This document shows, piece by piece, positions 15,665-46,187 of a stretch of DNA of 64,000 bases. A program made the translations under genes and the position numbers. This stretch comes from Chloroflexota bacterium (GTDB lineage: Bacteria > Chloroflexota > UBA11872 > VXNJ01), in assembly GCA_965207915.1 (NCBI GenBank), contig OZ242304.1, positions 1,389,581-1,453,580 of the forward strand. The letters run 5' to 3'. The first letter of the stretch is position 1. Every line of letters starts with the position of its first letter. The notes beneath the pieces are model-generated. The model saw only the letters and a program-made list of their open reading frames with translations, had not been told where the DNA came from and ran no database searches.

Positions 15665-15739
15665 GGTGAGCCGGGTGGGAGTCGAACCCACGACCAACGG
15701 ATTAAAAGTCCGCTGCTCTACCAGCTGAGCTACCGGCCC
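15665..15739 (-). tRNA. tRNA-Lys (anticodon UUU)
   Basis: Cloverleaf folded by hand: acceptor GGGCCGG/CCGGCTC, D arm GCTC-AGCTGGTA-GAGC, anticodon stem-loop GCGGA-CTTTTAA-TCCGT, T arm GTGGG-TTCGACT-CCCAC. Discriminator A with CC encoded. Confidence 0.8.
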
Positions 15740-32606: not shown

Positions 32607-33683
32607 ATGGAATATCGCACGTTCGGCGACTCGGAGCTGGAAGTCTCGGTGATCGGGTTCGGCGGCTGGCCGATGGGCGGGTCAAATTACGGCCTGGTCG
32701 ACGACGGCGAAAGCAAGGCCGCGGTTCGGCGTGCGTTCGACCTGGGAATCACCTGTTTCGACAACGCCGCCGTCTACGGCGTGGGCCATTCCGAGCGCGT
32801 GATGGGGGCGGCGCTCAAACCGATACGCGACCAGATCGTGCTGGTGACCAAGTGCGGGCTGGCCTGGAACGACGAGGTCAAGCGCGTCGAGCGCAACGGC
32901 ACCCGGGAAAGCGTCATCGCATCCTGCGAGCGGAGCCTCAAGGATCTTGGGACCGACTACATCGACCTGCTGCTGGTCCACTGGCCCGACGTTTACACCC
33001 CCTTCGAGGAGACGATGCGGGCGCTCGAAGAACTCCGGCAGGCCGGCAAGATCCGCTACGCCGGGGTCTCCAACTTCATGCCCGAGATGCTGGAGGAGTG
33101 CCGGCGGCACCTGGGGATCGTGGCCAATCAGATGGGATATTCGCTGCTGGAACGCCGCATCGAGCGCGACGTGATGCCATGGTGTGAAGAAAACGGGATC
33201 GGGATCATGGGTTATGGCTCGCTGGCCCACGGCCTGCTCTCGGGGGCGATGGACGCCGGCCACCAGTTCGAGACCGGCGACTGGCGGGCTACCGGTCACG
33301 CATTCGGACTGCCGATCTTTGACCGCGAAAAGCACTTCCCGGCCAACGTGGAAGTCCAGAACCGGCTCCGCGCAATTGCCGTACGCGAAGGCCACACCCT
33401 GCCCGAACTTGCGACGGCCTGGGTTCTTGCCCAGGAGGTCGTGACCACCGCGCTGGTCGGATTCCGGACCCCGGCCGAAGTCGACGAGGCTGCCCGCGCG
33501 GCCGACTGGAAGCTCACGGCCGAGCTCTCCGCCGAGGTGACCGCGATCTCCGACGAGGCCTACCAGCGCAACGTCGCCGACGAGCTGTTGACCCCGCCGA
33601 TCGGAAACTGGAATCCGTGGAACCGGCAACCGCAGCGGTTCGGCACCGCCGGACTCTCGCCCTCCGATCGGACAGACGACTAG
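32607..33683 (+). CDS. Aldo/keto reductase (copy 1 of 3)
   Basis: MEYRTFGDSELEVSVIGFGGWPMGG and the AKR catalytic tetrad context (LGITCFDNAAVYG...HWPD). Confidence 0.85.
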   Translation: MEYRTFGDSELEVSVIGFGGWPMGGSNYGLVDDGESKAAVRRAFDLGITCFDNAAVYGVGHSERVMGAALKPIRDQIVLVTKCGLAWNDEVKRVERNGTRESVIASCERSLKDLGTDYIDLLLVHWPDVYTPFEETMRALEELRQAGKIRYAGVSNFMPEMLEECRRHLGIVANQMGYSLLERRIERDVMPWCEENGIGIMGYGSLAHGLLSGAMDAGHQFETGDWRATGHAFGLPIFDREKHFPANVEVQNRLRAIAVREGHTLPELATAWVLAQEVVTTALVGFRTPAEVDEAARAADWKLTAELSAEVTAISDEAYQRNVADELLTPPIGNWNPWNRQPQRFGTAGLSPSDRTDD

Positions 33684-33864
33684 GTTGCAGCCGCTCGCGC
33701 GGCGCCTTGAGAATCCCGGCTGTCCTTTTCCGGGCTCGTGAACGACCGGCCGCCGGCGGGTAGCTTTGAGGGACGAAGAGGGGCGTTGAATCCGTCAATA
33801 ATGGGCGGTCAATGCGCCCCGCGGACGCTCACCCTGCGCGGCGCCCGGGAATGGATGGACGGCG

Positions 33865-34902
33865 ATGGAATACCGCAAGTTTGGTGATTCGGAACTCGAG
33901 GTCTCGGTTGTCGGGTTCGGCGGCTGGCCGATGGGTGGAAATTACGGCGAGTCCGACGACAGCGAAGGCCAGGCTGCGGTGCGGCGCGCGCATGAATTGG
34001 GGGTCACCTGCTTCGACAACGCCGCCGTTTACGGGCAGGGGCACTCCGAGCGGGTGATGGGCGCGGCGCTCAAACCGATACGCGACCAGATCGTGCTGGT
34101 GACCAAGTGCGGACTTGACCGCGACCCCGAGGGCGGCGGAGTGATCCGCAACGGCACCCGTGCCCACGTGCTGGAGTCCTGCGAGCGGAGCCTGAAGAAC
34201 CTGGACACCGACTACATCGACCTGATGCTGGTCCACTGGCCGGACATCTTCACCCCATTCGAGGAGACCATGCGGGCGCTGGAAGAGCTCCACCGGACCG
34301 GCAAGATTCGCTACGCCGGGGTGTCGAACTTCCTGCCGGACATGCTGGAGGAATGCAAGAAGCACTTCGGCATCGTCGCCAACCAGATGGGCTACTCGAT
34401 GCTGGACCGGCGCATCGAACGCGACGTGATGCCCTGGTGCGGGCAGAACGGGATCGGGATCATGAGCTACGGCTCGCTGGCCCACGGCCTGCTGTCGGGG
34501 GCCATGACCGCCGAATACGAATTCAAGCCGAACGACTGGCGCTACTCGGGCAACGCCTTCGGACTGCCGTTTTTTGATCGCGCGAAGCACTTCCCGGCCA
34601 ACATCCAGACCCAGGACCGGCTGCGGGCGATCGCCGAGCGCGAGGGCCACACCCTCCCCGATCTGGCGCTCTCCTGGGTGGTCTCGCACGAGACGGTAAC
34701 CACCGCGCTGGTCGGATTCACCACTCCGGGACAGGTCGAGGATGCGGCCCGCGCGGCCGAGTGGAAACTCTCGCCCGAGCTCTACGCCGAAGTGACCGCG
34801 ATATCCGACGAGGCCTACCAGCGCAACGTCTCGGGCGAGATGATGGCCCCGCCGGTGGGAACCAAGAACGCCTGGAATCCCAACCCGACCAAGTTCGCCT
34901 AA
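33865..34902 (+). CDS. Aldo/keto reductase (copy 2 of 3)
   Basis: Paralog of copy 1 (MEYRKFGDSELEVSVVGFGGWPMGG). Confidence 0.85.
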   Translation: MEYRKFGDSELEVSVVGFGGWPMGGNYGESDDSEGQAAVRRAHELGVTCFDNAAVYGQGHSERVMGAALKPIRDQIVLVTKCGLDRDPEGGGVIRNGTRAHVLESCERSLKNLDTDYIDLMLVHWPDIFTPFEETMRALEELHRTGKIRYAGVSNFLPDMLEECKKHFGIVANQMGYSMLDRRIERDVMPWCGQNGIGIMSYGSLAHGLLSGAMTAEYEFKPNDWRYSGNAFGLPFFDRAKHFPANIQTQDRLRAIAEREGHTLPDLALSWVVSHETVTTALVGFTTPGQVEDAARAAEWKLSPELYAEVTAISDEAYQRNVSGEMMAPPVGTKNAWNPNPTKFA

Positions 34903-35033
34903 CCGTGGTCGCCGGGTGAGGCGTTGAACCGCCCGGGCCGGACCGCGCGCGGTCCGGCATTGCCAGAATTGGCGGCGCCAGAACCGCGCCGGCGCCGTGT
35001 CGGCCGCGTAGCCAGGGAATAGCCAAAAACGCC

Positions 35034-36110
35034 ATGGAATACCGCAAATTCGGAGATTCGGACCTCGAGGTCTCAGTAGTTGGTTTCGGCGGCTGGCCGA
35101 TGGGTGGTACCCAGTACGGCGAAGTCGACGACAGCGAGGGCCAGGACGCGGTTCGGCGGGCCTTTGACCTGGGGGTCACGTGTTTCGACAACGCCGCCGG
35201 CTACGGCCTGGGGCATTCCGAGCGGGTTATGGGCGCGGCGCTCAAGCCGATCCGCGACCAGATCGTGCTGGTTACCAAGTGCGGAATCGCCTGGAACGAC
35301 GCCGAAAAGCGGATGGAGCGCAACGGCACCCGCGCCCACGTCCTGGAGTCCTGCGAGCGAAGCCTGAAGAACCTGCAGACCGACTACATCGACCTGCTGC
35401 TGATCCACTGGCCCGACGTCGATACGCCGTTCGAGGAGACGATGCGCGCCCTGGAAGAGCTGCAGCAGGCCGGCAAGATCCGCTACGCCGGAGTCTCCAA
35501 CTTCATGCCCGAGATGCTTACCGAGTGCAAGAAGCACCTGGGGATAGTCGCCAACCAGATGGGCTACTCGATGCTGGAGCGCCGCATCGAGCGCGACGTG
35601 ATGCCCTGGTGCGAGCAGAACGGGGTGGGGATCATGAGCTACGGATCGCTGGCCCACGGCTTGCTCTCCGGCGCGATGCCGGCCGACTACCAGTTCGAAA
35701 CCTGGGACTGGCGCGATTCCGGCCATGCCTTCGGCATGCCGTTCTTCGACCGCCAGAAACACTTCCCGGCCAATGTCGAAACCCAGCACCGCCTGCAGGC
35801 GATCGCCGAACGCGAGGGGCACACCCTGCCCGATCTGGCCCTAGCCTGGGTGCTCTCGCACGAGGTCGTTTCCACCGCGCTGGTCGGGTTCCGGACCCCG
35901 GCCGAGGTCAACGACGCCGCGCGCGCGGCCGAGTGGAAACTCTCGCCCGAGCTCTACGCCGAAGTGACCGCGATATCCGACGAGGCCTACCAGCGCAACG
36001 TCGCCGACGAGATGATGGTTTCCCCCAAGGGCGGATGGAATCCCTGGAACCGCGAACCGCAGCGCTTTGCCGGCGGCGGCCGCGATCTGCCCGAAGACGA
36101 GGCCGAATAA
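35034..36110 (+). CDS. Aldo/keto reductase (copy 3 of 3)
   Basis: Paralog of copies 1 and 2. Shares a perfectly identical ~78-bp tract with copy 2. Confidence 0.85.
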   Translation: MEYRKFGDSDLEVSVVGFGGWPMGGTQYGEVDDSEGQDAVRRAFDLGVTCFDNAAGYGLGHSERVMGAALKPIRDQIVLVTKCGIAWNDAEKRMERNGTRAHVLESCERSLKNLQTDYIDLLLIHWPDVDTPFEETMRALEELQQAGKIRYAGVSNFMPEMLTECKKHLGIVANQMGYSMLERRIERDVMPWCEQNGVGIMSYGSLAHGLLSGAMPADYQFETWDWRDSGHAFGMPFFDRQKHFPANVETQHRLQAIAEREGHTLPDLALAWVLSHEVVSTALVGFRTPAEVNDAARAAEWKLSPELYAEVTAISDEAYQRNVADEMMVSPKGGWNPWNREPQRFAGGGRDLPEDEAE

Positions 36111-36126: not shown

Positions 36127-36501
36127 TTGCCGGAAGAGCGTCTTTACTCGCTAAAAGAGGCTCGCGCACTGCTGCCGGCCACCGTTCGCCGGCTGGAGCA
36201 GATCGCGGAGCTCCGCGGGCAGATGCGGGCCTGGGGGAGCGCCGCCGAAGGGATTGCGCCGGCCGAGGGCGACGCACCCGGACTCGACGAACTGCTCGCG
36301 TCGATAAACGCACGGTTGCGCGAGCTCTCCGACGACGGGATCCTGGTTCGCGACCTGCGCAGCGGGATCATCGATTTCCCGGGCCGCGACGCCGACGGTC
36401 CGCTGTGCTGGTGCTTCCGGCTGGGCGAACCGGACATCCTCTTTTGGCACCGTCCCGACGAGGGTTTCGCGGGCCGCAAACCGGTGCAGGATTTCCAATG
36501 A
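36127..36501 (+). CDS. DUF2203-like conserved hypothetical protein
   Basis: TTG start giving MPEERLYSLKEARALLP, with the C-terminal CWCFRLGEPDILFWHRPDEGFAGRKP motif that I recall as characteristic of DUF2203. The track ORF start at 36067 overlaps the upstream AKR. Confidence 0.45.
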   Translation: MPEERLYSLKEARALLPATVRRLEQIAELRGQMRAWGSAAEGIAPAEGDAPGLDELLASINARLRELSDDGILVRDLRSGIIDFPGRDADGPLCWCFRLGEPDILFWHRPDEGFAGRKPVQDFQ

Positions 36502-36691
36502 ACGAGCGAAATAGCGCGGCAATCGAATAAAGCAACCCAGCTGAAATTGAAACGTTTTGTCAAATTGGCATTGCTATTCCATAAACGGTGATTTCACTAC
36601 TGTCCGAAACGGGAGAAGAATCGGAACCGGGAATTGAATACCGGACCATTTCTTGATTGGACTTGGAGCACAGTTAGTTTTTCCCGAATTT

Positions 36692-36744
36692 GCTTCCCCA
36701 ATTGGCAATCATTCGACGAAAGCTCGACACTCAATTGGGGAAGC
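36692..36744. repeat. Perfect 13-bp inverted repeat (GCTTCCCCAATTG ... CAATTGGGGAAGC) with 27-nt spacer
   Basis: Read directly from the AT-rich leader of the RNR gene. Could be an RNA hairpin or a protein-binding palindrome. Confidence 0.7.
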
Positions 36745-36998
36745 GAGTCGGACGGTTTGCAGTCCACGTGATCGATGGGCGTGGCGTATTCCGAATTTGG
36801 CCAATTGGGCGCCAAGATTTTTGGAACTGCGAAATTGACAATTCGTAGCAGGAAATTGCAAGCGCACAGTCGCTCACACGGTGGCGCATTTCCCAAGTGA
36901 ATCGTTTGATTCTTGGCTCGGAAATAAGCAGAACTGCGATAATTTCACTTTGGGCGTACGCAATAATTAGGCGAAATTGCCCCGTTTGGACCACCATG

Positions 36999-37014
36999 AC
37001 ACTAGATGTAGTGC
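36999..37014. promoter_or_regulatory. NrdR-box-like palindrome ACACTAGATGTAGTGC
   Basis: 13/16 match to the consensus NrdR box acaCwAtATaTwGtgt. Lies about 105 nt upstream of the RNR start codon. A second, weak half-match sits at 37068-37083. Confidence 0.4.
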
Positions 37015-37119
37015 CTCCGAATTGCCCAGCGCGATCGGTGCGACAACGATCAAAATTCGAACAATTGACAAAGATGTGGTGTTAGGTTTAAACGCTTGTA
37101 ATTAGTTAAATTTCGCCCG

Positions 37120-40011
37120 TTGTTCACTAGTACAAAAATGCCTAACGAGTGGTCGGGGCAGGCTAGCCAATCACCATCGATTGATTTCACCGCGATGCTC
37201 GTTCAAAAGCGCGACGGTCGGGTCGTCTCTTTTGACATCAAACGCATTCGTGACGCAATGGCTAAAGCCTTTCGCGCCGATTTGGGAATGGCAATAGACC
37301 AGGAGTTGTCGGACGCGATTTCGGGAGAAGTCGACGCAATAACTCACGCGGTATTGCAAAAGATCTCAGCCAATGCCAGGACAGATGAGGGTGTTGAGAT
37401 TGAAGCGATACAAAATGCCGTCGAAGAGGAATTAATGAGGAGAGGCCACTATTCGGTGGCCAGATCCTATATCTTGTACCGGGCGGAACGGGCAAGATTG
37501 CGCGCGATTCGTCGGATCGTCAAACCGGCGGATCAACTCAAAGATCCGATATTAGTAACCAAATCGGACAAGACTCGTCAGCCTCTGGAAGTCGCTCGCA
37601 TTCGCGCGGAGTTGTTCGAGGTCTTTAGAGGACTCGATGGACATTGTTCCATTGATGACATTGAAGACGCAGTTTTTCTTTCGTTACACGACGGGATTTC
37701 CTCCGGAGACATCCAACGTGCATTGATTTTGGTTGCTCGTCAATGCATGGAAGCTGAGCCCGCGTACGATCGCGTAGCCACGCGTTTACTTTTGAGGCTC
37801 ATTTATCGAGAAGCGTTGGGCGCCGCTCCGACCATTACTGAACTTGACGAACCATATAGGGAAGGATTTGCTCCCTATTTGCGCGCTGGTGTCGAGGCAG
37901 GAAGAATCGATTCCAAGCTGTTGGACTTCGATCTCGAGCGCCTGAAATTGGCGTTGCGCGTTGACCGCGACGACAACTTCAGGATCCTCGGCCTGCAGAC
38001 CCTGTACGACCGGTACCTATTGCACGTCGACGGGCGCCGCATCGAGACTCCGCAATATTTCTGGATGCGGGTGGCGATGGGGTTAGCCCAAAACGAGGAT
38101 GACCGTGAGGCTCGCGCGATCGAGTTCTATGAAACACTCTCACGGTGCCTTTTCGTTTCGGCAACTCCGACGCTCTTTAATTCCGGCACGCCGCATCCCC
38201 AGCTCTCTTCTTGTTACCTCTCCACAGTTAGCGACGACCTGGAGGGCATATTTAAGTGCATCTCCGACAATGCCGCGCTTTCAAAGTGGGCCGGGGGCCT
38301 GGGCAACGACTGGACCCCGATCCGCGCCACCGGATCCCACATCAAAGGCACCAACGGCGAGAGCCAGGGCGTAATCCCGTTCCTCAAGATCGTCAACGAC
38401 ACCGCGGTAGCGGTGAACCAGGGCGGCAAGCGCAAGGGCGCTGTCTGCGCCTATCTGGAGACCTGGCATCTGGACATCGAAAGCTTCGTCGAACTCCGCA
38501 AAAACACCGGCGACGAGCGCCGCCGCACCCACGACATGAACACCGCCAACTGGGTCCCCGACCTGTTCATGCAGCGGGTGGCCCAGAACGGACGCTGGAC
38601 GCTGTTCTCGCCCGACGAGGTCCCGGACCTGCACGATCTTTACGGTAAGGCTTTTGCTGAGCGTTACGAGCACTACGAGCGCCAAGCTAATCGCGGACAA
38701 ATCCGCCGCTACAAGGAAGTCGATGCGCGGGATCTCTGGCGCCAGATGCTCTCGATGCTCTTTGAGACCGGGCATCCCTGGATCACGTTCAAAGACCCGT
38801 CAAACATTCGTTCACCGCAGGACCACGTCGGAGTCGTGCACAGCTCCAACTTGTGCACCGAGATCCTGTTGAATACCTCCTCCACCGAGACCGCAGTCTG
38901 CAACCTGGGTTCGCTAAACCTGCCCGCCCACACGACCCCTGAGGGAATCGACGAGAAACTGCTGGCCAGCACGGTTGCTACCGCAATGCGGATGCTGGAC
39001 AACGTAATCGACATTAACTACTATCCGACCCCGGAAGCCCGGCGCTCCAACACTGCCCACAGACCGGTCGGACTGGGCGTCATGGGCTTCCAGGACGCGC
39101 TATATATCCAGCGCATTCCCTACGCTTCGCAAGAAGCAGTCGAATTCGCCGACCTTTCCATGGAATTGGTTTCATACAACGCGATCCTCTCTTCATCGGA
39201 ACTTGCTTCAGAGCGCGGCCCATACCCTAGCTATCAGGGATCGAAGTGGGACCGCGGCCTGCTCCCGATCGACACCATCGATCTGCTGGAACTGGAGCGC
39301 GGTGAGCCGGTCGAGATGAACCGCGAAAAAACCCTGGACTGGGGCTTGGTGCGTTCGCGGATTAACCGCGACGGTATGCGCAACTCCAACGTCCTGGCCA
39401 TTGCCCCGACCGCGACGATTTCCAACATCGCCGGGGTCTCGCAGTCGATCGAGCCGATCTATCGCAACCTCTACGCCAAATCAAACCTCTCCGGGGACTT
39501 CACGATCCTTAACCCGTATCTGGTTCGTGACTTGCGGCGACTGGACCTATGGGACCAGCGCATGATCGAGGATCTGAAGTACTACGACGGTGTGCTTGCC
39601 GAAATCTCCCGGATCCCTGAGGAGCTGCGGCGTCTCTACCTGGCAGCGACCCAGATTGAACCGGCCTGGCTGATCGAATGCGCGGCCCGTCGCCAGAAGT
39701 GGATCGACATGGGTCAGTCGCTGAACCTCTACATCGCCACACCGTCCGGGAAAGCGGTCGACGAGATGTACTTCCTGGCCTGGCGGCGGGGCCTGAAGAC
39801 CACCTACTACCTGCGCTCGTTCGCCCCTACCCAGATCGAAAAGACGTCGATCGACATCAACGCCCGCGCCATCCAGCCGCGCTGGATGAAATCCGAGTCG
39901 GCCTCGTCCCGGATCGCGGTTAAGCGCGCCGAAGCCCCAGCCGAAGTCCGCTCCACCGTCAACGGGCTGGTGTGCGACCCGTTCGACGAGGAATGCGAGG
40001 CCTGCCAGTAG
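37120..40011 (+). CDS. nrdA: Ribonucleoside-diphosphate reductase large (alpha) subunit with two N-terminal ATP-cone domains
   Basis: 963 aa. ATP-cone ([20 protein letters not shown]) plus a second degenerate cone, the catalytic core PTLFNSGTP...SSCYL, a tyrosine dyad KTTYYLRS near the C-terminus (class-I-like) and C-terminal Cys residues ([12 protein letters not shown]). No nrdB is adjacent, so class II (NrdJ) cannot be fully excluded. Confidence 0.8.
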
Positions 40012-42302: not shown

Positions 42303-43055
42303 CTAGAGGGCGATTAGCTCGCGGGCCAACACCAGGATGCTGGTGATCACGATCACCGTCACCACGAGTTGGCGGAACCGTCGGGCGTTCATGTGGCGGG
42401 TCAGCCGCACCGCCAACAGGTAACCGACCGCCACCATCGGGGCGGCGGCGACCACCAGCAGGAGGCGCTCGCCGGTGAACAGGCCTTCCAGGTAGTAGCC
42501 GGCCAGGGCCACGCCGTAGGCGACGGTCGAAAAGTAGGCCACCGCCGCCCGCAGCTCCTGCCGGCCCATGCCGCTGCCCAGGAAAAAAAGCACGATGATC
42601 GGGCCGCCGATCGAGAGGCCGGAGACCAGGGCGCCGGTCAGGAATCCCAGCAGCGGGCCGGTGATCCGGGGCTTGGGAACCTTCCTCTGTGGGTTGGTGA
42701 TGATCAGGACCGTGACCACCAGGACGAGCAGTGCGATGCCGATCCGCAGGTAGGTCGGATCCAATTCGCTCAGCGCCCACACCCCGATCGGGGTGCCTAG
42801 TACGCCGGCCAGGACCATCGGCGTTAACTCGCGGATTCGCAGCCGGGCGCGGGTTTCAATTAGAACCAGCGCGAATGCCAGCACGGCCACCGAATTGACC
42901 ACGGTGACTACCGTCTGCGGGTCCAAAAAGAGCAGGAGGAAGGGGGTGGTGGACAGGGCGAACCCGAATCCAATCGCTCCAATCGTGAATCCGGCAAGAG
43001 TGAGAACTAATGCGGTGCTTGCAATCTCGACCGGCCCGATCACTTCTACGCCCAC
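42303..43055 (-). CDS. TauE/SafE family sulfite exporter (DUF81)
   Basis: 250 aa, about 8 TM helices, internally duplicated 4-TM halves with a GxxxG-rich pattern typical of TauE. Confidence 0.75.
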   Translation of the reverse strand: MGVEVIGPVEIASTALVLTLAGFTIGAIGFGFALSTTPFLLLFLDPQTVVTVVNSVAVLAFALVLIETRARLRIRELTPMVLAGVLGTPIGVWALSELDPTYLRIGIALLVLVVTVLIITNPQRKVPKPRITGPLLGFLTGALVSGLSIGGPIIVLFFLGSGMGRQELRAAVAYFSTVAYGVALAGYYLEGLFTGERLLLVVAAAPMVAVGYLLAVRLTRHMNARRFRQLVVTVIVITSILVLARELIAL

Positions 43056-43722
43056 CGCGTTCGAAAAGCTGAATCTATCTTTGTGCTTCGAATCTTGAAA
43101 GTGGCGGAAACTGACCGCCCGAAACTAGCCCAATTCTGGTCAGGAATCGCAAAGCAACTTGCGGAATTCGCAGTTCATCGGGCTCACAAGATTTCAGCTT
43201 GACTAGCAAGAGTCACTGCCTCGCCGTATCGGTGGCGTGGATTGAACCATGAAGTCGGTTGAATCTAGGTCAAATTGGGCCAACTGAATAGCCGTGTTTG
43301 ATATTTCGCCGCCAAATCTTGAGATCTGGAGGTAATTCGAGCGGCAGTTATCGTCTCCGAATTTCCGCCCTTCTTTCCGCGGAAATGGCGATCCTGGTAT
43401 TCGCTACACGGTGCAATCTGCGTCAATCTCACGTTTGGAGAATTGCGCGCCGTGCGCTGAATAGATTTGTCGTGCCACTTGGAACTGTCGGCTTCGTGAA
43501 ACCACTGACGCCGTGGAAACCGAAAGTCTTAAGAATTACGCAGGGTGCAGCCGAAGTGGTCGGCCTGACACAAAATGTAGGAATAGAGTCGCAAATTGCG
43601 CGGCCAGGCACCCAACTGATGGTGGGTGCTCTTCACCGGAATTTTTGATCCCGTACAATCGGAGCCCGGCTTTTTTGGAGTATTTGAAACCGGGTGTTCG
43701 GATGCGGAGAGGAGGTGAAAAG

Positions 43723-43854
43723 ATGACCGATCGACGAGCTGGTAAGCGGGTTCCGCACGTGCCAAGCAAGGGCGGCGCGCAACCGCGCGCCCGAAACAAT
43801 GACGGCACGTGGCGCCGGAAACGTTCTGACGCCGGTAAACCAAGGCGCAAATGA
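43723..43854 (+). CDS. Candidate small basic protein (43 aa, pI>12)
   Basis: Strong SD GGAGAGGAGGTG 7 nt upstream of the ATG. MTDRRAGKRVPHVPSKGGAQPRARNNDGTWRRKRSDAGKPRRK. Lies inside the AT-rich island. Only this C-terminal part of track ORF 43513..43854 has translation signals. Confidence 0.3.
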   Translation: MTDRRAGKRVPHVPSKGGAQPRARNNDGTWRRKRSDAGKPRRK

Positions 43855-44310
43855 CGCCTCTCGCAGGAAACTTGGCGGGCCCGAATACTTAAGCGTGCCA
43901 ACCAATTACCCGAATTAATCAGGTACGGTTCGACACCAATTAGGGTGACTCGCCACGTATAGGGTCCACCAAGCCCTGCGGCAACCCATACGCCCAATGG
44001 GAAACATTGGGAAATGGCTGCGATTCAATTATGGTTACCGCTGGACCAAACGGCGGCACGATGTGATCAGCGAATCGAAGCGCTATCGTAAATCGCCACA
44101 AACAAATCTTGATGTGGCCATTGCGAATCGCAATCGGAACCGAAGTCTGCAACCGTTGGAATCGATTTGACGGTATTGCCGGGCCCGCGATTTGAGTCCA
44201 TCCAATCCTGCTGCAAAGCGGCCAGATTGTTGGAAGATGCGGGGAATTACTCATCAATGCGGACATTGGCCCTAACGAATTAAGCAACTACAACTAATTA
44301 GGAGTGATTT

Positions 44311-44664
44311 GTGGAAGTCACTACTGGCGTATCAATCTTGGTCGGCGCTATCTCCGCGCTGATTTCGATATTTGCAATCTGGTTGGCATATTCGGCCAAA
44401 TCGGAAAGTTCGGCGAATTTCGAAAAAGCACAGCGAGTGTTAGCTGAAATTGACAAGAGGGCAGCAGTTACCGAGGAGGTCGTCGCAGAACATCAGCGCG
44501 AACTAATGGACACGGTTCGACAACTGGTGATTCCGGCGAAACCCGACGTGGGCGAGATGCTTGGCGCAAAGTTCCTTGAGTCGATCGTGCAAGACCCTGA
44601 TCGCTTCATGAAAATGATGCCGATGTTGGAGCGATTTTCAGAACGGAAACAACGGGACGAATAA
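44311..44664 (+). CDS. Hypothetical membrane-anchored protein (AT-rich, likely acquired)
   Basis: RBS AGGAGTG 6 nt before the GTG. N-terminal TM helix. Its GC content is far below the genome background. Confidence 0.5.
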   Translation: MEVTTGVSILVGAISALISIFAIWLAYSAKSESSANFEKAQRVLAEIDKRAAVTEEVVAEHQRELMDTVRQLVIPAKPDVGEMLGAKFLESIVQDPDRFMKMMPMLERFSERKQRDE

Positions 44665-44814
44665 CCCCGTTGATTGCGCAGTGTCGTCTAGATACATGCA
44701 TGCCAAATGGCACATGACTTTACGAACTACGAGCATGTTGGGATTTCGCGAATTGATCCGATTTCCATTTGTGGATTGTTCGGCAGCGGATTTCGACGCG
44801 AGGTAATCCCTAGC

Positions 44815-44852
44815 ATCGAATCGCCCGGCAGAATTCTGCCGGGCGATTCGAT
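44815..44852. repeat. Perfect 38-bp palindrome ATCGAATCGCCCGGCAGAATTCTGCCGGGCGATTCGAT
   Basis: Read directly. 17-bp arms around a central GAATTC. Located between the convergent 44311 ORF and the MFS transporter, so it is a likely bidirectional terminator or a protein-binding site. Confidence 0.7.
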
Positions 44853-44903
44853 TGATGCGCTCAAGCGACTCGGATTGCACTGGCTACCCAGTTGCCCCAG
44901 TCC

Positions 44904-46187
44904 TCAGATCGACTTGAGCAGCGCCACGTCGTCCTGCAGGGGCCGCAGGATCAGGGCGGCGGCGATCATGAAAAGCGCCATCACCAGGTAAACGATCGTG
45001 AATCCGTGCAGCTGGCCGCCGCGGTTGCCCAGGTCGAGCACTATCCCGGCCCACAGGGTCCCGACCGCGTCGCCGCCGGCGCCGGCGAAATTGGCCAGTC
45101 CCAGATAGAGTCCGGCGCTGTTGGGGTTGGGGATCTTGTCGATCAGCAGCGCCCAGTCGCCGGCCGAGAACGCGCCCAGCGCGAACCCCAGCATCACCAC
45201 CGCAAATCCCAGCGCCGCGATGTGCACGATGAAGGCGGCGCAAATAGAGCCCACGCAGCCGCAGGTGCAGGCCACGTAGACCACCGTCTTGCGCCCGAAA
45301 CGGTCGCCGATCACCCCCGCCGGCCAGGCCGAAGCGATCGTGGCCAGGAGCAGGAGTCCGAGCAGGATCGAGGACCACTGCCCGGGGTTATCGACCTCCA
45401 GGCGGTCGCGCAGGTTAAAGAGCAGGGTGTTGTCGGCAGCCAGTATGGCCCCGAAGAAGACCAGCCGCGAGGCGACCACGCGGACGAACGCGGGCTGGGC
45501 TTTCAGGTAGGAAATGACCTGCCCGAACTCGCTGCGCAGCGGGGGCTGCGGCGCCGCCGGCGCGGTCGGCCCCTTGGGGATTAGCAGGAACGCCAGCAGC
45601 CCAGCGAAGGCGACCGTCAGCCCGCCCACGAACACGAAGCCGCCCGGATTGCCGGCATCTAGGAACACCCCGGCGATGGTGGCCCCGATGACGGTGCCGC
45701 CGATGTTCAGGATCCCGTTGATCGAGGATGCGCGTGCCATCTGGGTGGTCCCGACAAGGTCGGGCAGCACGCCCTTTATCGCCGCCCGCGAGAAGTTCTC
45801 GGAAATCTGCTGGCAGAGGATCAGCGCCAGCAGAGCCAGGTAGGTGGCCGTCAGCGACATCAGCAGCACGAACACCGCGGTGCAGATCGCGCCCAGGATC
45901 AGCATCGGCCGGCGCCGGCCCCAGCGCGACCAGGCCCGGTCCGAGATCCCGCCGGCCAGGGGCTGGACGATGATCGCCGCGGTCACCCCGACCGCGGTGA
46001 TGACCCCCAGCATGGTGCCCTTGATGTCGGGGCCGACCAGCTGCTCGACCCGGTCGGGCAGGTACACGATCGCGAACCCGCCCCAGAGCAGCGAAAGCCC
46101 CAGCCAGTAAATGTTGAGCCGCACCAGCATCAGCGGCGAGAGCGCCTGCCGCGAGGCGTAGGCCAGGGCCGCCGGCGAAACCGACAT
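44904..46187 (-). CDS. MFS transporter
   Basis: 427 aa, 12 predicted TM helices, with the MFS loop motif GGISDRWGRRRPML. Confidence 0.8.
   Translation of the reverse strand: MSVSPAALAYASRQALSPLMLVRLNIYWLGLSLLWGGFAIVYLPDRVEQLVGPDIKGTMLGVITAVGVTAAIIVQPLAGGISDRAWSRWGRRRPMLILGAICTAVFVLLMSLTATYLALLALILCQQISENFSRAAIKGVLPDLVGTTQMARASSINGILNIGGTVIGATIAGVFLDAGNPGGFVFVGGLTVAFAGLLAFLLIPKGPTAPAAPQPPLRSEFGQVISYLKAQPAFVRVVASRLVFFGAILAADNTLLFNLRDRLEVDNPGQWSSILLGLLLLATIASAWPAGVIGDRFGRKTVVYVACTCGCVGSICAAFIVHIAALGFAVVMLGFALGAFSAGDWALLIDKIPNPNSAGLYLGLANFAGAGGDAVGTLWAGIVLDLGNRGGQLHGFTIVYLVMALFMIAAALILRPLQDDVALLKSI

Follow-up and report, generated by a model that had tools for sequence, protein, structure and literature searches.

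A probable horizontally acquired genomic islet with two small maintained genes between MFS and TauE transporter genes of a Chloroflexota bacterium

Flexible genomic islands that are exchanged by homologous recombination of the flanking core genes are known from marine and halophilic prokaryote populations. Here we describe a segment of about 1.85 kb with low guanine plus cytosine (GC) content that lies between an MFS and a TauE/SafE-family transporter gene of a Chloroflexota bacterium (assembly GCA_965207915.1, contig OZ242304.1, positions 1,389,581 to 1,453,580 of the forward strand). The whole stretch of DNA that was analyzed, 64,000 nucleotides long, is referred to as the window, and all positions are counted from its first letter unless they are assigned to another contig. 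We consider it highly likely that the segment was acquired horizontally and is a small "flexible" genomic islet of this kind with a selectively maintained cassette. In a Chloroflexota genome of 66% GC, foreign DNA of about 52% GC would have replaced the short spacer that separated two core genes of the same orientation, MFS and TauE, and, having no mobility genes of its own, would pass between related lineages via homologous recombination in the flanking core genes. The islet and its two neighbors are as follows.

43056 to 44903, no strand: low-GC islet that fills the space from the start of TauE to the stop codon of MFS, delimited by composition and by the homology breaks in relatives.
42303 to 43055, minus strand: TauE/SafE-family transporter gene, left flank (Pfam TauE, E=5e-29).
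44904 to 46187, minus strand: MFS transporter gene, right flank, with its stop codon abutting the islet (Pfam MFS_1, E=2.3e-29).

A sequence-only reading of this DNA had described an AT-rich island of about 1.85 kb between the TauE and MFS genes, and both a GC scan and a comparison of GC content at third codon positions (GC3) confirmed this. The islet proper had a GC content of 52.1% compared to 66.7% in the flanks and about 66% in the 64-kb window. The GC profile ran at 0.48-0.59 over approximately 42950-44900 with sharp edges, and at 0.64-0.69 in the flanks. In a 200-bp scan of the 64 kb, just two tracts longer than 330 bp fell under 56% GC: the islet (42888-44936, 52.7%) and the leader and 5' end of a ribonucleotide reductase (RNR) gene (36385-38296). 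GC3 was 0.50-0.59 in the islet genes (0.59 in p43 and 0.56 in p117, the 43- and 117-amino-acid genes described below) versus 0.92 in MFS and 0.84 in TauE.

When species-representative genomes were scanned with the MFS protein, six Chloroflexota loci in metagenome-assembled genomes (MAGs) were returned, and the MFS orthologues in these loci (L001-L006) and in a further contig, L028, had 72-96% protein identity. In the window, chorismate synthase (AroC) and then a sulfatase follow beyond the MFS gene; the gene order sulfatase, AroC, MFS, TauE, p73, peptidase was kept in L001, L003, L004 and L006, where the distance from the MFS stop to the TauE start was 43-50 bp. Homology of the window to these four loci ended exactly at 44904 and picked up again at about 43043. 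Their empty-site spacers, approximately 40-50 bp long and GC-rich, were alike in L001 and L003 and showed no similarity to the islet ends. These empty sites imply that about 1.85 kb took the place of a short native spacer. The comparison with relatives proposed in the sequence-only reading therefore found the segment absent from four syntenic regions and present in one (L028), and not conserved in all of them.

Two further observations were made at these loci. The L002 contig stops 5 nt past the MFS stop (L002 9484-9489), exactly at the islet junction, which fits a strain-level presence/absence of the islet that broke the assembly. An insertion in the L006 MFS gene (L006 7354-9710) was considered as a related islet and rejected, as it consists of two aldo-keto reductase paralogues that split the gene; the window itself holds three tandem aldo-keto reductase paralogues at 32607-36110.

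The 90%-identity cluster of p117 contained a second member, P0007, on contig L028. This contig, an ENA scaffold, comes from another metagenome sample that was separately assembled as Logan contig L029, and both assemblies carry the TauE, islet, MFS arrangement with junctions at positions identical to those in the window. An assembly chimera in a metagenome-derived genome might be entertained on the grounds that the related genomes are MAGs and that the L002 contig breaks just after the MFS stop. The same arrangement and junction bases recur, with diverged sequence, in an independent sample and in two assemblies, which rules out an assembly artefact; the probability left to a chimera is vanishingly small and we treat it as effectively excluded.

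The second copy also showed how the islet is distributed. L028 and the islet-free L001 belong to the same species-level lineage (right-flank identity 98.5%, left-flank identity 95.5%), while the window has about 91% identity to either of them in the right flank and 86% in the left. The islet is therefore present or absent within one lineage and common to two lineages. Within the TauE gene, nucleotides 511-738 (the last 228 nt) had zero differences between L028 and L001, whereas nucleotides 1-510, which abut the islet, had a synonymous divergence (dS) of 0.47 and a ratio of nonsynonymous to synonymous divergence (dN/dS) of 0.076. This indicates that TauE nucleotides 1-510 in L028 are a divergent yet functional allele, the signature of import by homologous recombination with the left crossover inside TauE. 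Between the window and L028, dS was 0.66-1.07 for the islet genes compared to 0.22-0.30 for MFS and AroC, so that the islet alleles are several times older than the host backbones. This fits an islet that circulates in a wider population, not one that diverged together with its host. The GC content of both islet copies has stayed at 52%. Horizontal acquisition, which the first reading had put forward, is strongly supported by the foreign composition, the absence in four relatives, the polymorphism within a lineage and the adjacent recombination tract.

Alignment of the two copies was then used to locate conserved parts of the islet. The working core would span approximately 43640-44852 and would comprise a TACAAT hexamer, p43, a 456-nt spacer, p117 and a 17-bp hairpin, which we infer to form one islet transcription unit.

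43654 to 43659, plus strand: -10-like hexamer TACAAT upstream of p43 (promoter scan), identical in L028 inside the conserved block TTTGATCCC.TACAATCGGAGCCCGGC; putative promoter.
43665 to 43694, plus strand: leader hairpin CCCGG...CCGGG of p43, found in both copies; the stem is invariant, hence no covariation.
43723 to 43854, plus strand: p43, 43 amino acids, with an AGGAGG Shine-Dalgarno sequence at 43710-43715, 7 nt upstream of its ATG.
43855 to 44310, plus strand: conserved noncoding spacer of 456 nt, from the two-copy alignment, with no codon phase.
43993 to 44011, plus strand: invariant hairpin CCCAATG-GGAAA-CATTGGG within the spacer, the same in both copies.
44311 to 44664, plus strand: p117, 117 amino acids, with AGGAG 7 nt upstream of its GTG start.
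44815 to 44852, no strand: perfect 38-bp palindrome located where p117 and MFS converge; folded, it gives a hairpin of 17 bp with an AAUU loop.

Both small genes are protein-coding and under purifying selection. Between the window and L028, p43 had 18.5 synonymous and 4.5 nonsynonymous differences (dN/dS 0.045), and 17 of its 23 mismatches fell at the third codon position; for p117, dN/dS was 0.063 with 34 of 46 mismatches at third positions. The sequence-only reading had described the first as a very basic 43-aa open reading frame (ORF) with a Shine-Dalgarno sequence and the second as a 117-aa transmembrane protein with a strong ribosome-binding site, and both are present at the positions listed. 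Its view of the islet as sparsely coding held, but not its count of only one convincing gene, since p43 is also real and the islet has two functional small genes. No coding signal besides p43 and p117 was detected in Pfam searches, in tblastn searches of plasmids and phages or by codon phase.

The p43 protein contains 15 Arg/Lys and 3 Asp residues (net charge about +12) and has no hydrophobic core; judged by this composition it is probably a disordered, nucleic-acid-binding peptide. Its family consensus is M[TA]DRRAG..PHVPSKGG.QPRARN.DG.WRKKRSDAGKPR. The p117 protein has one N-terminal membrane helix at about residues 6-27 followed by a helical C-terminal part, which the charge distribution and the positive-inside rule place, probably, in the cytoplasm. 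The family shares the motif FAIWL...ES.AN...LAEIDKRAAVTE. An AlphaFold2 model of p117 was all-helical with a confidence (pLDDT) of 55, too poor for a fold search.

The spacer between the two genes was also conserved. Its 43866-44136 portion had 74.5% identity to L028, compared to about 54% in the neutral left part of the islet and 43-56% at synonymous sites. Its mismatches had no codon phase, its indels were of 1-2 nt, and there was no shared open frame in which amino-acid identity exceeded nucleotide identity, so that the spacer is conserved noncoding sequence. It folded somewhat better than shuffled sequences (z-score -2.9 on the plus and -2.5 on the minus strand) and had no Rfam match. While based on two sequences only, this is compatible with the spacer being a structured RNA or small RNA (sRNA), and of the sRNAs suggested for the island in the first reading the spacer is thus a possible candidate, conserved and moderately well folded.

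The perfect 38-bp palindrome reported at the right edge was confirmed. It is the longest in the window, where the next are 22 and 20 bp, it occurs there once, and no further copies were found in the window, in 27 fetched loci or in viral contigs. Both strands were predicted to fold stably (-38 to -40 kcal/mol; z-scores -5.7 and -6.3). The hairpin is separated by 150 nt from the stop codon of p117 and by 52 nt from that of the convergent MFS gene, and the region around it (44665-44903), the palindrome excepted, had 38-46% identity to L028. The L028 palindrome has a different sequence and still forms a 15-bp hairpin: of 14 aligned pairs, 4 carry double compensatory changes, none is broken and 100% are paired, compared to 25-44% pairing in slid controls. 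Compensatory changes without broken pairs argue that the hairpin structure is under selection. The hairpin was not called by a terminator scan. Judged by its strength and placement, it is probably a bidirectional terminator, at which transcription of the islet (past p117) and of the convergent MFS gene would both end. The best sub-threshold Rfam match in the islet, isrO (20 bits versus the 42 required), is located on this palindrome. An insertion sequence (IS), a miniature inverted-repeat transposable element or an IS200/IS605-type element was considered and rejected: the palindrome stands at one end only, and there is no terminal inverted repeat, no target duplication and, in the window, the fetched loci and the viral contigs, a single copy.

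The remaining, outer parts of the islet were less constrained.

43056 to 43640, no strand: fast-evolving left part with no detectable gene, 44-64% identity to L028 and an indel of about 110 nt.
43088 to 43107, minus strand: 20-nt block TCGAATCTTGAAAGTGGCGG, shared by the two copies and lying some 35-65 nt before the start of TauE; read from the alignment.

Mismatches in the left part were distributed 61/47/57 over the codon positions, that is, with no codon phase, and its translated frames had no Pfam, plasmid-protein or phage-protein matches; by these measures it appears to evolve neutrally. The 20-nt block within it is a candidate replacement promoter or operator of TauE. TauE, which used to follow MFS at about 45 bp and was probably read from the same transcript, now stands 1.85 kb and a strong hairpin away and would depend on islet sequence for its expression; the TauE coding sequence is still under purifying selection.

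That block bears on another explanation, in which the segment is native regulatory DNA of TauE or MFS (sRNAs, or a silencer-bound AT-rich leader) that was deleted in the relatives. The segment does lie directly upstream of TauE and has a conserved block close to the start of that gene, and shuffled sequences fold less well than the spacer RNA. A deletion would have to account, however, for the absence of the segment in all four syntenic species-level relatives, including the 98.5%-identical L028 partner L001, and for GC-rich empty-site spacers that resemble one another in L001 and L003. Nor would native DNA be expected to have foreign codon usage, gene relatives in other phyla, plasmids and phages, or a divergent TauE tract in L028 that points to import. 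We consider native regulatory DNA highly improbable, to the point of being effectively excluded.

Motifs that had been singled out in the island proved to be of little weight. The 12-bp palindrome TTTCCGCGGAAA is present, at 43374-43385 and not at about 43369 as reported; it is at chance level (about 0.45 palindromes of 12 bp are expected per 1.85 kb, 1850/4^6) and is not conserved in the L028 islet copy. The claimed echo of motifs in the RNR leader was likewise at chance level, with no demonstrable link: AATTGCGCG occurs 5 times in the window versus 1.2 expected and just 2 of these lie within the islet, and GAAATTGC has zero occurrences in the islet. The second low-GC tract of the window (36385-38296, 51.7%) consists of a 600-nt leader and the 5' third of the RNR gene (37120-40011, plus strand). 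Since the relatives L001 and L003 are low in GC there as well, this tract is a conserved feature and no insertion. Visual inspection shows an NrdR-box-like palindrome, ACACTAGATGTAGTGC, at approximately 36998-37013.

Searches for the means of transfer gave negative results. Pfam and other family searches found no integrase or transposase domain among the islet ORFs, a repeat search found no terminal direct or inverted repeats, target duplication or notable tandem repeats, and a tRNA scan found no adjacent tRNA, the sole tRNA of the window lying far off at 15665-15739. No family in Pfam, PADLOC, PHROGs or NCBIfam was matched at threshold by any islet ORF. Rfam 15, a check that the sequence-only reading had proposed, gave zero islet matches at the gathering score and none at E<=5 giving a family, and the islet DNA had no similarity to any of 50,697 phage and 72,556 plasmid records. 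A concatenate of six-frame open stretches returned nothing from a set of 5.8 billion proteins; since it contained p43, which alone finds 47 clusters there, this blank was discarded and negatives from concatenated multi-frame queries are untrustworthy. The six-frame concatenate minus p43 had no tblastn match in plasmids or phages.

Could the islet be the decaying leftover of a larger mobile or defense element, such as a former carrier of the methyltransferase-Mrr fusion gene that accompanies p117 elsewhere, and now be functionless? The usual partner of p117 is absent, the islet has no mobility genes, and its outer 585 bp and about 150 bp look neutral and differ by indels. The term "remnant mobile element" used in the first reading is apt in part: these outer parts (43056-43640 and 44665-44810) look neutral, but the searches turned up no transposase, integrase, terminal repeats, target duplication or second copy, and the core is under purifying selection. 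Values of dN/dS of 0.045 and 0.063 at dS 0.66-1.07 mean that the genes have long been maintained, compensatory changes preserve the hairpin, the spacer is some 20 points above neutral conservation, and neither tblastn nor tblastx revealed a remnant of the methyltransferase-Mrr gene. A functionless leftover is, in our assessment, improbable.

The presumed function of the maintained cassette was approached through the contexts of its homologues. For p43, a search of the large protein set returned 47 homologue clusters with 60-88% identity. Homologues adjoin a Type ISP restriction enzyme and IS21 (L033), an SLFN/AlbA (Schlafen/AlbA-type) ATPase (L034), an E1/E2 Bil-like cluster and GmrSD (L035) and a Thoeris TIR protein (ThsB_TIR; L036), and one lies among transposases and a reverse transcriptase (L032). 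Homologues were also found in 14 viral contigs and on 86 plasmids. Many of the latter are ColRNAI plasmids of 4-5 kb from Klebsiella and Enterobacter, in which the matches fall outside all genes of the plasmid gene table (an incomplete table). On one Klebsiella plasmid the homologue adjoins a RelE/ParE pair. In some viral contigs the C-terminal motif of p43 heads larger proteins, for example a peptidase or a membrane protein. The p43-family loci (the window and L030-L051) span 28% to 70% GC. On 4.1-kb ColRNAI plasmids of Klebsiella and Enterobacter, the homologue (L051 2026-2154) lies just upstream of a gene named "protein L", and in one metagenomic genome it is present as a tandem duplicate near the S10 operon (L030 5001-5210 and L031 5321-5442), where the region of the L030 copy holds an N run.

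For p117, homologues had 40-47% identity, and at least 184 clusters (at 50% identity) were found at E<=1e-3 in a representative library; a contig index had no record for the p117 of the window. In the first protein search, all five homologue clusters had a gene of about 540 amino acids with N6_N4_Mtase, Mrr_cat and NA-iREase1 domains downstream, starting 4-224 nt after the p117 homologue or, in at least one case, overlapping it. This two-gene unit recurs in other bacteria (L007 6445-8061, L009 3567-5189 and L011 6485-8107); PADLOC recognizes the methyltransferase part only of the approximately 540-aa fusion. Another p117 subgroup occurs in viral contigs, and in L027 it lies within a moron-like gap, about 2.8 kb wide, that separates lambda K-like (JAB plus NlpC/P60) from lambda I-like tail genes. 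Neither family is represented in Pfam, NCBIfam or PHROGs, profile searches of the PDB gave low-complexity or coiled-coil noise for both, and literature searches on the two signature motifs found no paper. A restriction-modification system of the methyltransferase-Mrr kind was rejected as an identity for the islet, the enzyme gene not being beside p117 here; in a tblastx comparison of the islet with the homologue loci, p117 was the sole match and there was no remnant of the enzyme gene.

Given that members of both families are found in other genomes on mobile elements and next to restriction or defense genes, a role of the cassette in mobile-element biology or in phage defense or exclusion is the most likely one. 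It would act at the membrane through p117, possibly with p43 as a nucleic-acid-binding partner. We propose this role tentatively, with clearly less confidence than the islet itself.

Several results weigh against parts of this picture. On the functional side, family searches found no recognized defense, toxin or mobility domain in the islet, and the methyltransferase-Mrr gene is absent from the whole window (best tblastn E of the L007 protein 0.84). Nowhere but in this islet are p43 and p117 neighbors, which makes a functional pairing of the two a conjecture. One p43 homologue (L030) has a housekeeping context near the S10 ribosomal operon, and the context evidence comprises about six p43 loci and seven p117 loci, anecdotal and without statistics. 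On the structural side, a shuffle control of the hairpin returned 30/500, and no U-tract follows the hairpin on either strand (TGATGCG on the plus, GCTAGGG on the minus strand). On the right side L028 is 100% identical to L001 up to the junction, so that a crossover is not visible there. Finally, the comparison of the islet rests on two copies, the window and L028, which gives tests of covariation and conservation low power.

The membrane location of p117 also raises an addiction-like or abortive-infection-like module, in which p117 would be a membrane-damaging effector restrained by p43 and/or the spacer RNA, and which would persist since its loss is costly or since it kills infected cells. 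In favor of it, p117 is a small membrane protein, and the SLATT_1 model (PF18181) matched it with 15 bits, under the 26.3-bit cut-off; CyanoTRADDas_TM also gave a match below threshold. Weak SLATT_1 matches were present in 7 of 60 p117 family members (best E=1.5e-4); none of these matches attains a curated threshold. The strong purifying selection on both genes, the conserved spacer RNA between them and the defense and mobile-element contexts of the homologues, including the plasmid copy beside RelE/ParE, would also suit a module of this type. However, p43 and p117 are not together elsewhere, toxin-antitoxin pairs do not typically have a gap of 456 nt, no tandem-repeat RNA like that of type III systems is present, and close relatives lack the islet or lose it easily. 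On balance we think such a module unlikely, if somewhat less so than a functionless leftover.

Returning to the flexible islet with a role in mobile-element biology or defense, a bolder version would see in the conserved core an undescribed, self-contained mobile cassette (p43, a 456-nt structured RNA and p117) for phage exclusion or defense or for competition between plasmids or phages. The p43 family would then represent a nucleic-acid-binding peptide of mobile elements that is widespread but has escaped annotation, with a range that extends from Chloroflexota to phages and to 4-kb enterobacterial ColE1-type plasmids. We offer this version as speculation that is unlikely to hold in full.

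Set beside known systems, the individual parts of the islet each recall something described and depart from it. The palindrome resembles intrinsic bidirectional terminators in being a strong, GC-rich hairpin between convergent genes that is kept by compensatory changes; unlike typical intrinsic terminators it has no U-tract, and its 17-bp stem is much longer. The p117 protein has weak similarity to SLATT (PF18181) over the membrane helix and the next helix, and both occur in conflict-system contexts, but the score is 15 versus 26.3 bits and p117 has one predicted membrane helix, not two. As a lead only, p43 and the spacer resemble lambda N and boxB: p43 is Arg-rich with an invariant Trp, and downstream of it stands an invariant hairpin with a purine-rich GGAAA pentaloop. 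In contrast to lambda N/boxB, no comparable hairpin follows other p43 homologues, the sequences are not similar, and nothing points to antitermination.

The islet proteins also have counterparts in phage and defense biology. Like phage morons and superinfection-exclusion proteins, p117 is a small membrane protein that has a single predicted membrane helix and signals of its own, and a relative of it lies in a moron-like insertion between lambda-type K and I tail genes; unlike them, it is in a window with no prophage and has no sequence similarity to characterized exclusion proteins. The location of p117 relatives directly upstream of methyltransferase-Mrr fusion genes is that of restriction-modification partners in defense islands, as is the location of p43 relatives beside Type ISP, GmrSD, Thoeris TIR, Bil-like and Schlafen-like genes. 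The islet differs from defense islands in that it holds no defense enzyme and neither of its proteins matches PADLOC, and the association comes from a handful of loci. Two uncharacterized small-protein families, mostly missed by annotation pipelines, thus recur beside defense systems and on mobile elements, and the conserved noncoding stretch could be a new RNA. If either protein acts in phage defense or plasmid biology, the p43 copies on enterobacterial plasmids would ease testing.

As a type of feature, a small flexible islet that arises from horizontal transfer is ordinary. Compared to the usual flexible islands this one is unusually small (two tiny genes in 1.85 kb), a tRNA, an integrase and repeats are all missing from it, and its cargo is uncharacterized and does not consist of surface-glycosylation or transporter genes. 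In other respects it behaves as flexible islets do: it is a low-GC, strain-variable insert at a fixed site between core genes and is polymorphic within a species, a divergent tract lies in the neighboring core gene, and the islet alleles are older than the surrounding genome. It offers a clean, base-resolved case of an islet free of mobility genes whose transfer between species-level lineages would proceed through recombination of the core genes on either side, with the tract still visible.

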